A DNA stretch of 64,000 bases from an uncultured Chloracidobacterium sp. Lineage in GTDB: Bacteria; Acidobacteriota; Blastocatellia; Pyrinomonadales; Pyrinomonadaceae. The stretch is taken from assembly GCA_964410495.1 (NCBI GenBank), contig CAYPGP010000001.1, positions 61,993 to 125,992 on the forward strand, in the 5' to 3' direction. The translations under genes and the position numbers were made by a program. This document shows, piece after piece, positions 15,875 through 19,378 of this stretch (within the stretch, counting starts at the first letter, position 1; each line of letters starts with the position of its first letter). Below the pieces are notes generated by a model. The model was not told where the DNA came from, did not search any database, and saw only the letters and a list, made by a program, of their open reading frames with translations.

Positions 15875-16981
15875 GTGCTTAAAGTTCTACTCATTGCCGG
15901 TGCGCGGCCGAATTTTATGAAGGTGGCGCCGATCTACGCTGAGATGAAGCGGCGTTCGTCTCATTTCACGCCGTTGATCGTGCATACTGGCCAGCATTAT
16001 GATGCGGCGATGTCGGATTCATTTTTCGAGGACCTTCGGATGCCGAAGCCGGATGTGCATCTGGGAGTAGGTTCGGGTTCGCACGCGGTGCAGACGGCGA
16101 AGATCATGACGGAGTTCGAGCCGGTCGTGCTGGAACATAAACCGGACTGGGTCTTGGTCGTGGGCGATGTGAATTCGACGATCGCTTGCGCCCTGGTTTG
16201 CGCAAAGCTCGGCGTAAAAGTTGCGCATGTCGAGGCGGGCCTGCGATCGCGTGACCGTGCGATGCCGGAGGAGATAAATCGCATCCTTACCGATTCGATC
16301 TCCGACCTGCTGCTGACGACATCTGAGGATGCCGACGAGAACCTGGCGGCGGAAGGAATTCCGGCAAATCGGGTGAAATTTGTCGGGAATGTGATGATCG
16401 ATTCGCTGCTCGAGCATCTGAAGATCGCTGAAGGCTCGACGGTTCGCGACGATCTTGGGATCGAGGCAGGGAAGTACGGTGTTGTAACGCTTCATCGCCC
16501 GTCGAATGTGGACGACAGGGATGTTTTTGAAGGGATCGTGGACGCGCTTGTCACCGTTTCAGAAAAGCTTCCGATCATTTTTCCGGTTCACCCGCGAACG
16601 CGTGGAAAGATCGCGGAGTTCGGGTTCGACGCGAAGATCGCGGCCTCGAACATTCGCTTGATCGAGCCGCTCGGATATCTGGATTTCATGCGGTTGTATA
16701 GCGGTGCTCGGTTGGTGTTGACGGATTCCGGCGGATTGCAGGAAGAAACGACTGTGCTGCACATTCCTTGCCTCACGCTGCGTCACAACACGGAACGGCC
16801 GGTGACGATCGAAATGGGGACGAATGTTCTCGTCGGTACGGACCCGGAAAAGATCAAGGTTGCCGCTGAAAATGCATTAGAGACTACACTCGACCGAACA
16901 GAAGCAAAGATCCCGCCGCTCTGGGATGGAAAAGCGGCGGGACGAATTTGTGACGAGTTGCTGAGATATTCCGTCGCGTGA
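15875..16981 (+). CDS. wecB: UDP-N-acetylglucosamine 2-epimerase (non-hydrolysing)
   Basis: LLIAGARPNFMKVAP, HVEAGLRS and TDSGGLQEE motifs. GTG 15875 preferred because the track's TTG 15842 lies inside the palindromic repeat. Confidence 0.8.
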   Translation: MLKVLLIAGARPNFMKVAPIYAEMKRRSSHFTPLIVHTGQHYDAAMSDSFFEDLRMPKPDVHLGVGSGSHAVQTAKIMTEFEPVVLEHKPDWVLVVGDVNSTIACALVCAKLGVKVAHVEAGLRSRDRAMPEEINRILTDSISDLLLTTSEDADENLAAEGIPANRVKFVGNVMIDSLLEHLKIAEGSTVRDDLGIEAGKYGVVTLHRPSNVDDRDVFEGIVDALVTVSEKLPIIFPVHPRTRGKIAEFGFDAKIAASNIRLIEPLGYLDFMRLYSGARLVLTDSGGLQEETTVLHIPCLTLRHNTERPVTIEMGTNVLVGTDPEKIKVAAENALETTLDRTEAKIPPLWDGKAAGRICDELLRYSVA

Positions 16982-16984
16982 TCG

Positions 16985-17398
16985 CTATTTGCCGGCCTCG
17001 ACCGGAAAACCGGCCGCTTTCCAGCCCTGGATGCCGCCTTTGAGGGCGAATACGTTAGCGATGCCTTTTTGATTCATCTGGAATGCCAAACTGGCACTCG
17101 AATTCTCCGACGGTCAGGCACAATAGACGATTATCTTCTTCCCCTTGGGGAGCGAGTCGAAGCGGTTTTCCGCTGATCCCTCTACTAAAACTGCCCCTTT
17201 GATGCGCTCTTGCCTAAAGGCTTCCGCCGACCGCGAATCGACAAAGACCGCGCTTCCGTCATCAAAGCTCTTTTTGGCTTCCTCGACCGTTACACGCGGC
17301 ACTTCGGAAGCGTTAGCGAATTTCTTTAGGTCGTCGTTATGGGCCAGGGCGCCGATCGCCGTAAAGGCCAAAACGTATAGGCAAAGTATAAATTTCAT
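16985..17398 (-). CDS. exported single-domain rhodanese, predicted selenoprotein (TGA 17114-17116 read as Sec)
   Basis: Track ORF ends ...KGKKIIVYCA at TGA. The same frame continues PSENSSASLAFQMNQKGIANVFALKGGIQGWKAAGFPVEAGK to TAG 16985-16987, completing the rhodanese fold. Signal peptide MKFILCLYVLAFTAIGALA. Confidence 0.7.
17081..17099 (-). promoter_or_regulatory. SECIS-like hairpin 14 nt downstream of UGA
   Basis: RNA GAGUGCC-AGUUU-GGCAUUC: 7-bp stem with one G-U pair and G-U in the apical loop. Confidence 0.55.
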
Positions 17399-17413
17399 AC
17401 TATCTCCTTTTTG

Positions 17414-17851
17414 TTATTGTTGCGGCGTGGAACTTAGAACGGGATAGCCCTGAGCCTTCCAGGCGTTCGGCCCGCCGACAAGTGCGTAAGTTCCGGGGAT
17501 GCCTTTCTGATTCATTTTGAGTGCCAAACTGGCACTCGTGTGTTCGCCTCCTCAGGAACAGTAGAGGACTATCTTTTTCCCCTTGGGCAGCTTTTCGAAC
17601 TCGGTTTCCGGGGCATTGTATTCGATCACGACGGCCCCGGGAAGATGTTCCACGTCATACGCGCCCTTACCGCGCGTATCAACGAAAACTACGCGGCCCG
17701 CATCGTATTCCTTCTTGGCGTCTTCGGCTGAAATACGCGGAACAGCCTGTTCATTGTCGTACTTTACGTACTCGATCACCGGAGCGTTCTGGCAGGCAAA
17801 AGCGAATGCCAGCAGCACCGATGAGAGGATAAAAAGAACCGCTTTCTTCAT
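17414..17851 (-). CDS. exported single-domain rhodanese, predicted selenoprotein (TGA 17552-17554 read as Sec)
   Basis: Track ORF ends ...KGKKIVLYCS at TGA. The same frame continues GGEHTSASLALKMNQKGIPGTYALVGGPNAWKAQGYPVLSSTPQQ to TAA 17414-17416. Signal peptide MKKAVLFILSSVLLAFAFA; ATG 17851 shares its A with the bcp stop codon. Confidence 0.7.
17519..17537 (-). promoter_or_regulatory. SECIS-like hairpin 14 nt downstream of UGA
   Basis: RNA GAGUGCC-AGUUU-GGCACUC: perfect 7-bp stem and 5-nt loop with G-U. Confidence 0.55.
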
Positions 17852-18309
17852 CACTTTTCTCCAAATGCCGCGAGCACTTCGTCAGCGTGTTTTGAAACAT
17901 CGACCTTGTCGAAGATCTTGACGATCTTGCCGTCGTCGATCAGGAACGTCTTTCGGAACGTGCCCATGTACTTCTTGCCGTACATGCTCTTTTCGCCCCA
18001 GACGCCGTAGTCTTCGACCACCTTTTTATCGACGTCGGCGAGCAGGTCGAACGGGAGCTGATACTTTGAGATGAATTTCTGATGGGCTTTTTCGCTGTCG
18101 GTGGATACGCCGAGGACGGTGATTCCCTTGGCGCGGTAAATTTCATCTGCATCGCGGAACGAGCAGGCTTCCTTCGTACAGCCGGGCGTGTCGTCTTTCG
18201 GATAAAAATACAGAGCCAGCCGCTTGCCTTTGAAATCGGAAAGCTTAACGGTGTTTCCGTTCTGGTCGGTTGAAGAAAAATCGGGTGCTTTGTCGCCTTC
18301 TTTTAGCAT
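17851..18309 (-). CDS. bcp: thioredoxin-dependent peroxiredoxin Bcp (PrxQ)
   Basis: FYPKDDTPGCTKEACSFRD with peroxidatic and resolving Cys; 152 aa. Confidence 0.85.
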   Translation of the reverse strand: MLKEGDKAPDFSSTDQNGNTVKLSDFKGKRLALYFYPKDDTPGCTKEACSFRDADEIYRAKGITVLGVSTDSEKAHQKFISKYQLPFDLLADVDKKVVEDYGVWGEKSMYGKKYMGTFRKTFLIDDGKIVKIFDKVDVSKHADEVLAAFGEK

Positions 18310-18376
18310 TTATCTCCTCGATCGTTTTGATACCTGATTTTCCAATATTTCACTAAGGGCGCGCAATAGTTGAGCG

Positions 18377-19378
18377 TCATTTCTTCTTGCCGAAATTCCA
18401 TTTCATGCCGGTCGTAAGAAGAAAATCGTTCTTCTTCGACGTACCGTTCGGGTCGTTATTATAACGGTCGCCCACGGCGATGAAGAAGCCAATCTTCTTT
18501 GTGACATCAATGCTGATGGTCGAGTCCATGATGAAGCGAAATTCGACGCGGTCTGTCACATTCTGAAAATACGTGACCGCATTCTGGATGCGCAGTTTGT
18601 CGTTGATGCGATGCTTGAAATTAAAGCCCGCGAGGCCTTCGGGCGTGTTTGCGTCCGAATTGGCCTGCCATGTGCGGTTCCAAGCTCCGCCCATGAAGAG
18701 TTCGAGTTCGGTCCTGTCATTCTTGATAGTACGATGCCCGAGTCCGCCGCCGGCAACCGAACGGAAGTCGAGACGACGAGGTTTGTCCCGTTCGAAATCG
18801 TATGAGACAAAGCCGAAGACTTTCTTGTTTAGAGTTCTATCGTATCTCGCACCGCCCCAGAATGCGTTTTGTGTCGTGACGTTCAGATTTGAACCGTGAT
18901 TGCTGTTCCAAAGGCTGCGGGCGTAGATGGTGATGCCATCCTGCGGACGCGATTTGGATGCTCGCAGGCCTGTGGTCATCGTAATGTTGTTGGAGTTTCC
19001 CGATGTATAGCTGAATCCGATATTTGCGTTGCCATCCCAGCCCGTGGCGACCGACTTCATCCGGCCGACAAAACCATTGCGCGAACTCTTTTTGATGACT
19101 GAGCCTACAGGCGGAGCAGCAGCGGCCGGCTTCGGAGCGGCCAGATTTGCAGCGGCGGCAGATCGAGCCAGCGATGCGGGGCCGACCTTGGCGATATGTT
19201 TTCGGTCGATCTTGAGCTTGCCGGCGTACTCGGTCTCAATCACCACCGCGTCCTCGCTTTCCTCGACGATCTTTCCGGAGAGCCGGTCGCCGTTTTTCAG
19301 CGTTAATTCCCCGGCAAACGCCGACGAAAAAATAGCCGCGATCAGGATGAAGGCCAGCAAGCGCGAAACGTGTCTCAT
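18377..19378 (-). CDS. DUF481 family outer-membrane beta-barrel protein
   Basis: Signal peptide; N-terminal LKNGDRLSGKIVEESEDAVVIETEYAGKLKIDRKHI module; C-terminal alternating beta-strand pattern. Confidence 0.65.
   Translation of the reverse strand: MRHVSRLLAFILIAAIFSSAFAGELTLKNGDRLSGKIVEESEDAVVIETEYAGKLKIDRKHIAKVGPASLARSAAAANLAAPKPAAAAPPVGSVIKKSSRNGFVGRMKSVATGWDGNANIGFSYTSGNSNNITMTTGLRASKSRPQDGITIYARSLWNSNHGSNLNVTTQNAFWGGARYDRTLNKKVFGFVSYDFERDKPRRLDFRSVAGGGLGHRTIKNDRTELELFMGGAWNRTWQANSDANTPEGLAGFNFKHRINDKLRIQNAVTYFQNVTDRVEFRFIMDSTISIDVTKKIGFFIAVGDRYNNDPNGTSKKNDFLLTTGMKWNFGKKK

Follow-up and report, generated by a model that had tools for sequence, protein, structure and literature searches.

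Bacterial selenocysteine (Sec) insertion sequence (bSECIS) elements have been described by a compact set of structural rules: an apical loop of 3–9 nucleotides (nt) on a stem of 4–16 base pairs (bp); a G at loop position 1 or 2, most often with G or U as the next base; a distance from the UGA codon to the loop of 16–37 nt; and a minimum free energy (MFE) of at most −7.5 kcal/mol (PMC13188914, summarizing the bSECISearch model of Zhang and Gladyshev). The selenoproteins listed in the same review include rhodanese-like form 3, which is characterized by a CxU motif and represented by the NCBIfam family NF041203 (PMC13188914). Use of Sec has been documented in Acidobacteria (PMC1794560, Table 2) and, within this phylum, in Occallatibacter riparius (PMC12013277). 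Here, we describe two nearly identical hairpins in a stretch of 64,000 nt from an uncultured Chloracidobacterium sp. (assembly GCA_964410495.1, contig CAYPGP010000001.1, positions 61,993–125,992; hereafter referred to as the window), each of which follows an in-frame UGA codon in one of two tandem rhodanese genes. We consider it very likely that each hairpin is a bSECIS in the coding sequence of a gene for a rhodanese-type selenoprotein. The mechanism is known, as is the protein family; the novelty lies in an unannotated acidobacterial clade and in a clear comparative demonstration.

Two hairpins downstream of in-frame UGA codons

The reading frames of the two rhodanese genes, both encoded on the minus strand, are each broken by a single TGA. 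In gene A (17412–17851; 145 codons plus stop with the UGA read through), this codon is located at 17552–17554 in the context LYCS-U-GGEHTS (LYCS-U-GGEHTSASLALKMNQKGI), and in gene B (16983–17398; 137 codons plus stop with the UGA read through) at 17114–17116 in the context VYCA-U-PSENSS (VYCA-U-PSENSSASLAFQMNQKGI); both codons would be read as Sec. Fourteen nucleotides past the UGA, the mRNA of gene A contains the SECIS-type hairpin GAGUGCC-AGUUU-GGCACUC (GAGTGCCAGTTTGGCACTC; 17519–17537, minus strand) and the mRNA of gene B contains GAGUGCC-AGUUU-GGCAUUC (GAGTGCCAGTTTGGCATTC; 17081–17099, minus strand). Each hairpin has a stem of 7 bp and a loop of 5 nt, or a stem of 8 bp and a loop of 3 nt if the A-U of the loop closes, as RNAfold draws it. 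The G-U of the loop is found at +26/+27, numbered from the U of the UGA.

The two hairpins are identical at 18 of 19 positions, and the lone difference, C versus U, changes a G-C pair into a G-U pair. The 14-nt spacers between UGA and stem (GGAGGCGAACACAC in gene A and CCGTCGGAGAATTC in gene B) share 4 of 14 positions. Starting 3 nt past the hairpin, a stretch of 18 nt (ATGAATCARAAAGGCATC) is identical at 17 of 18 positions between the genes, and the peptides LPKGKKI and MNQKGI are likewise similar between the paralogs. A preliminary description of the locus, made from the DNA alone, had reported both hairpins, and its coordinates, 14-nt spacing, and hairpin sequences are exact for both TGA codons; its account of a C-to-U difference that preserves pairing, of spacers that are almost wholly different, and of nearly identical 18 nt downstream is also confirmed. 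Within the window, the 19-mer occurs at these two sites only (0.03 sites expected when up to three mismatches are allowed), and the version found in gene B is the commonest variant among homologs.

When folded in isolation, the 19-mers are far more stable than shuffled controls, a comparison that the preliminary description had left to be made. For gene A, the MFE is −11.7 kcal/mol (z = −5.5), and for gene B, it is −9.4 kcal/mol (z = −5.9), with none of 200 shuffles as stable in either case; in a context of 66 nt, the z-scores are only −1.9 (A) and −0.1 (B). Both hairpins conform to all four bSECIS rules, including the one for MFE, and have the placement of a bSECIS, in the coding region and 14 nt after an in-frame UGA. 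The distance from UGA to loop, made up of the 14-nt spacer and one 7-nt arm, is 21 nt; it becomes 22 nt if the A-U closes the loop. With this distance and an AGUUU loop, the proposed fit of the stem-to-UGA spacing and of the loop G-U to the descriptive bacterial SECIS model holds.

Conservation of the hairpin among homologs

A scan of one genome per species identified 75 loci, most of them from Pyrinomonadaceae and Chloracidobacterium metagenome-assembled genomes (MAGs) and others from Nitrospiraceae, Desulfobaccales, and other deltaproteobacterial MAGs; another 34 loci came from a scan of metagenomes. The analyzed set comprises all family members in which the active-site column is TGA or TGY, which amounts to 106 distinct TGA sequences and 9 distinct cysteine (Cys) sequences. 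Distant loci (L064 and L066–L079), which are ordinary Cys rhodaneses of other subfamilies, were left out.

The hairpin is found at the same offset in all 106 distinct TGA homologs, and none of them has a TGA without a hairpin. Retention of the stem alongside TGA in relatives, on which the preliminary description had made its proposal depend, is therefore complete in this set. The two inner pairs (C23-G31 and C24-G30) never vary, all 106 sequences have G at loop position 2 (nt +26), and loop position 3 is U (92 sequences) or G (14 sequences); the loop variants are AGUUU, AGGCU, AGGUU, AGUCU, GGUCU, AGUUG, CGUGU, CGUGC, and CGGGN. The primary sequence GAGUGCC…GGCAYUC is present in most of the 106 sequences. 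In the first 75 sequences, 92.4 per cent of the stem cells of the alignment are paired in register, compared to 27–43 per cent when the 3′ arm is slid by 1–3 nt, and no shuffle reached the observed pairing score or the observed covariation score.

The hairpins of some distant homologs are weaker (−6.1 to −7.4 kcal/mol on a 26-nt segment). In L044–L058 (Chloracidobacterium/Pyrinomonadaceae sequences with SASLV, SASWV, or SAGLV peptides), the outer stem pairs in a shifted register, with C in place of G at the start of the 5′ arm and a single bulged base in the 3′ arm, GGUAxCUG. The helix that RNAfold predicts for these sequences still has −6.4 to −8.2 kcal/mol, and it is because of the re-registered outer stem that they were counted as unpaired in the fixed-column count.

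The hairpin accompanies TGA and not TGY. Cys codons occupy the UGA column in the database proteins P0005 and P0007 and in seven further distinct paralog sequences. The 19-nt segment has a mean MFE of −8.8 kcal/mol in the 106 TGA forms and of −2.2 kcal/mol in the nine Cys forms (Mann–Whitney test; P-value of about 1e-6, without correction for phylogeny). In Cys homologs, similar peptides (TSSSLAFQMNQKG and TSAALSFQLNQ) are encoded by other codons, and the RNA does not fold. Moreover, several loci (L006:2850, L008:2855, L013:2856, L014:2824, L017:2824, and L092:1068) contain a third rhodanese paralog, which has Cys (TGT/TGC) and no hairpin. This paralog is located approximately 440 nt upstream of the first Sec paralog, beside two Sec paralogs that bear hairpins, and is an internal control inside one operon.

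Translation past the UGA codons

Beyond the TGA, the frame remains open for 42–45 codons, which complete the rhodanese domain and yield read-through translations of 145 (A) and 137 (B) residues. The PF00581 match (residues 41–133 in A and 37–129 in B) crosses the TGA in both genes and covers the full domain, with E-values of 1.1e-14 and 2.2e-16, and the TGA column is aligned with the catalytic Cys of the PDB 6mxv loops CGGGFRS and CGSGFRS. In more than 100 homologs, the protein past the TGA is under purifying selection while synonymous change is free, a substitution pattern that shows the downstream region to evolve as a translated protein would. A scan of the window for further open reading frames (ORFs) interrupted by a single TGA returned only the two rhodaneses as candidates that resemble real proteins. 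TGA is otherwise an ordinary stop here, as it ends 14 of the 42 window ORFs of at least 250 amino acids; a genome-wide reassignment of TGA to sense is therefore ruled out.

For both genes, the best NCBIfam match is NF041203 (rhodanese_LYCAU, 'rhodanese-related (seleno)protein'). Scored with Cys in place of Sec, the product of gene A reaches 79.3 bits and that of gene B 93.5 bits, both short of the curated cutoff (115 bits); other Pyrinomonadaceae/Chloracidobacterium copies reach 76–90 bits. Homologs from Nitrospiraceae, Desulfobaccales, and deltaproteobacteria score 137–167 bits and are true NF041203 members; in the control members L060, L061, and L063 (164, 167, and 137 bits, respectively), the hairpin is situated at the identical offset. 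The match to another rhodanese-type selenoprotein family, TsoB (NF045694), is weak (18.7 and 25.5 bits versus a cutoff of 805). Because the scores fall below the cutoff while the motif, the Sec position, and the in-register homologous SECIS are the same, the window genes are, by these profile comparisons, a sister clade to NF041203 that the curated model misses.

Since NF041203 does not capture this clade, its annotation stays as truncated proteins. Among the close homologs (P0001–P0043), 41 of 43 are recorded as proteins of 82–117 amino acids that end in …YCS or …YCT, and nearly all close database homologs of the window genes have 99–100 amino acids and end in …YCS. These entries, named, for example, 'rhodanese-like domain-containing protein', end where gene callers halted at the Sec codon. 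The two full-length relatives in the database, P0005 and P0007, have Cys at the UGA position.

We propose that, as the ribosome nears the UGA, the C-terminal domain of SelB, in complex with Sec-tRNA(Sec), would bind the 19-nt stem-loop 14 nt downstream, with the exposed loop bases G26 and U27 as the expected SelB contact. The ternary complex would thereby be tethered at the A site, and the UGA would be decoded as Sec and not read by release factor 2 (RF2). The predicted product is a complete rhodanese domain that has Sec in the catalytic loop and a Cys two residues upstream (CxU). Genes A and B are old tandem paralogs, each of which would have kept its own SECIS, and are probably co-transcribed with the gene of a Bcp peroxiredoxin.

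The surroundings of the UGA are also conserved. The codon before it (17555–17557 in gene A and 17117–17119 in gene B) is under strong synonymous constraint in homologs: Ser is encoded by TCC in 70 of 70 cases, and residues other than Ser use ACC, GCC, or GAC, so that the base preceding the UGA is always C. The base following the UGA is C or G in 80 of 82 sequences, and the Cys at −2 is TGT in 71 of 82. These patterns suggest that, besides the hairpin, the UGA context itself may be selected, through the P-site tRNA or through competition with RF2.

RNA-level and protein-level constraint

To separate constraint on the RNA from constraint on the protein, we calculated codon entropy given the amino acid in 82 distinct segments of 120 nt. 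Flanking codons have entropies near the maximum (Pro−11, 1.87 of 2 bits; Gly+17, 1.97 of 2; Ala+23, 1.76 of 2; Leu+24, 2.48 of 2.58). Codons within the hairpin are nearly fixed (Ala+7 is GCC in 77 of 77, Ser+8 is AGT in 47 of 47, and Thr+5 is ACG in 49 of 57) or restricted (Ser+6 uses only AGY, Leu+9 only YTG, and Ala+10 only GCA or GCG). Near-zero synonymous variation in the hairpin versus near-maximal variation in the flanks separates RNA-level from protein-level constraint, and these frozen sites support the earlier suggestion that the hairpin is constrained as RNA.

Three of the stem pairs (18-36, 21-33, and 24-30) each connect third codon positions. In the first 75 sequences, pair 21-33 is U-A (63 sequences), C-G (9), or U-G (1), and pair 18-36 is G-C (57), C-G (3), or G-U (3). 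The replacement of U-A by C-G at pair 21-33 combines a Ser change from AGU to AGC with an Ala change from GCA to GCG; both are synonymous, and the combination is seen in several lineages, which provides the compensatory stem changes that the preliminary description had proposed to look for in relatives. On a neighbor-joining tree built without the hairpin codons, pair 21-33 needs at least 8 changes, and pair 20-34 has switched between G-U and G-C no fewer than 17 times.

At stem position 22, G is replaced by U in seven sequences (L011:3675, L012:3760, L013:3750, L085:1372, L008:3722, L041:3706, and L090:1052), which creates a U·C mismatch and changes Ala to Ser. All seven have at least one adjacent pair that is stronger than in the commonest form (pair 21-33 becomes C-G, or pair 20-34 becomes G-C). 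Judged from the aligned stems, the mismatch looks like one that is compensated through stabilized adjacent pairs.

Paralogs A and B fall into separate ortholog groups across approximately 60 genomes. Because A and B group by orthology, their similarity reflects old conservation, and recent gene conversion between the paralogs is ruled out.

Several observations weigh against a SECIS function. Among the 1954 TGA trinucleotides of the window, 5 per cent pass the bSECIS rules and 2.4 per cent do so at −9.4 kcal/mol or below; matching the rules is therefore weak evidence, and the case rests on the comparative data. Rfam returned no relevant match, neither for the whole window at the gathering score nor for 16950–17900 at E-values of up to 10, where only chance-level unrelated matches were obtained. 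Double-sided changes are found in only two of the seven pairs, and the count of covarying pairs does not exceed that in shuffles (322/500). For this reason, we regard the stem as mainly conserved and as covarying little, although the limited covariation is still informative because of the third-codon-position geometry. The hairpin codons also encode the conserved S-A-x-L-A residues, and part of the hairpin conservation is protein-level. The Cys forms P0005 and P0007 keep a weak hairpin (−4.6 and −4.4 kcal/mol), the one observation that softens the contrast between TGA and Cys forms; the loop of these relics, GCGAU, has lost the G-U, and this is how a SECIS decaying after replacement of Sec by Cys would be expected to look. 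Finally, ARAGORN detected no tRNA, and hence no tRNA-Sec, in the 64-kb window, and neither the window nor any of the fetched loci gave a tblastn match to E. coli SelA, SelB, or SelD, a result that says little about the whole genome. With these points taken into account, the interpretation as a bacterial SECIS is still supported, chiefly by the comparative data.

One alternative, which we judge very improbable, is that the palindrome has no RNA function and is a by-product of protein constraint on S-A-S-L-A in the rhodanese active-site region, perhaps combined with gene conversion. A purely protein-level origin would be compatible with the conserved residues encoded by the hairpin codons, with the similarity of LPKGKKI and MNQKGI between the paralogs, and with the weak hairpin kept in two Cys forms. 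It conflicts, however, with the frozen synonymous sites of the hairpin, given that equally conserved flanking residues use all codons, and with the synonymous AGU/GCA to AGC/GCG replacements in several lineages; Cys homologs with similar peptides use other codons and do not fold, and the orthology grouping of A and B argues against recent conversion. The preliminary description had itself cautioned that protein constraint or gene conversion might explain the similarity, a caveat that the synonymous data, the compensatory changes, and the orthology grouping now counter.

Recoding of the UGA could also proceed independently of SelB and Sec, by hairpin-stimulated near-cognate read-through (with insertion of Trp or Cys) or by ribosome pausing. 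A UGA with C before it and C or G after it is poorly read by RF2 in E. coli termination. This context, which is the one found here, and the lack of Sec machinery among the genes seen in the window would suit such recoding. Nevertheless, the UGA is located exactly where homologs have Cys, and such Cys/Sec pairing is a hallmark of selenoproteins; the closest curated family consists of selenoproteins with the same motif and hairpin; and the loop, with its invariant G and the U or G after it, matches the SelB-dependent model, as does the distance from the UGA. We therefore consider SelB-independent recoding very improbable.

That the TGAs are true stops of truncated genes or pseudogenes and the hairpins are terminators, attenuators, or mRNA-stabilizing stem-loops might be argued from the database entries, which end at the TGA with 99–100 amino acids, and from the use of TGA as a normal stop within the window, but this can be set aside as extremely improbable, given that the additional open codons complete the rhodanese domain, that post-TGA codons are under purifying selection in more than 100 homologs, that the hairpins have neither a T-run nor a hit in the terminator scan whereas a proper terminator-like hairpin follows gene B, and that the TGA is kept across phyla although a rhodanese ending ahead of its catalytic residue would have no activity.

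Genomic context of the rhodanese genes

The putative selenoprotein genes are the last two of four successive genes on the minus strand (16983–19378): a DUF481 gene (18377–19378), a gene for a Bcp-type peroxiredoxin (AhpC-TSA; 17851–18309, ending in TGA), rhodanese gene A, and rhodanese gene B. The DUF481 gene, which lies upstream of bcp, is preceded by a promoter-like site (19416–19388, minus strand). One base is common to the TGA stop of bcp and the ATG start codon of gene A (TGATG, 17849–17853), an overlap that implies translational coupling, and the two genes are probably part of one operon. Gene B is preceded by an AAGGAG Shine–Dalgarno sequence. A terminator-like hairpin (16910–16943, minus strand), formed by a 13-bp stem with a T-rich tail, lies approximately 40 nt past the stop of gene B, between the convergent rhodanese and epimerase genes, and is likely the end of the operon. 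At the loci of relatives, the same gene order is maintained (DUF481, bcp, rhodanese, rhodanese, epimerase).

The N-terminus of gene A (17789–17851) is hydrophobic and resembles a lipoprotein signal, ending in …FAFAC-Q; its orthologs end in …L[LF]LAC-Q or …FAFAC-Q. The N-terminus of gene B (17339–17398) resembles a signal peptide and ends in …GALA-H. Given these signal-like N-termini, both selenoproteins would be exported.

Implications for annotation

The known mechanism is unchanged by these findings, and their practical value is chiefly one of annotation. Dozens of Acidobacteriota genomes have genes of this clade stored as rhodanese fragments of approximately 100 amino acids that lack the catalytic residue. 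Recognition of the UGA and the SECIS restores two full-length selenoproteins per genome and widens the selenoproteome of an abundant soil phylum. The set of 106 sequences also amounts to a natural experiment on how a SECIS constrains coding sequence and how it decays once Cys replaces Sec.

A more far-reaching reading, which we put forward only tentatively and consider unlikely, is that the clade comprises functionally distinct exported CxU rhodanese selenoproteins of an envelope module and, separately, that its SECIS sequence is read specifically by the SelB of the lineage. If so, a lipoprotein encoded by gene A and a periplasmic protein encoded by gene B would be paired with the co-transcribed Bcp peroxiredoxin and a DUF481 outer-membrane protein in a module for envelope selenol/thiol redox reactions or for sulfur/selenium trafficking. 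The near-invariant GAGUGCC-NGKNN-GGCAYUC and the fixed NCC codon before the UGA would, for their part, reflect sequence-specific SelB recognition beyond the generic structural model.

Comparison with known systems

The window genes share with NF041203 a single PF00581 domain, the [LV]YC[AS]U motif (LYCSU and VYCAU), the Sec position, and the offset of the hairpin. Unlike NF041203 members, the genes of the window clade are arranged in tandem pairs beside bcp and DUF481 genes, in some cases together with a Cys paralog as a third copy. Other rhodanese-type selenoproteins (forms 1, 2, and 4, with UxxS/UxxG; TsoB, NF045694) have the rhodanese fold with a Sec in the catalytic loop in common with the window genes but differ from them in motifs and architectures.

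As short G+C-rich stem-loops in mRNA, the hairpins bear some likeness to Rho-independent terminators and attenuators, from which they differ in having no U-tract and in lying inside a conserved reading frame. A terminator scan flags neither hairpin, and the sequences that follow them (AAAAUGAAU and CAGAUGAAU) contain no T-run. With no T-tail and no flag from the scan, the terminator reading of the hairpins is ruled out; the true terminator-like hairpin at 16910–16943 provides the contrast.

The closest resemblance is to the bSECIS, with which both hairpins share a stem-loop in the coding region just 3′ of an in-frame UGA and a small apical loop in which a G precedes U or G. A full-text literature search for the string GCCGGUCUGGC, which contains the loop, retrieved no paper; the Moorella thermoacetica SECIS of SelB co-crystals may have this string as well. 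In the prototype, E. coli fdhF (NC_000913.3), 11 nt separate the UGA from GGUUGCAGGUCUGCACC, and the loop G-U is at +23/+24; at +26/+27, the G-U described here is one codon further from the UGA. The loop of fdhF, GGUCU, recurs exactly in many of the homologs analyzed here. Unlike fdhF, the window hairpins lack a bulged U in the upper stem, and the UGA is not part of any conserved lower helix: an RNAalifold analysis of the region from −44 to +75 nt, in which such a helix was sought, recovered the apical hairpin only. They also depart from the prototype in that their primary sequence is unusually conserved.

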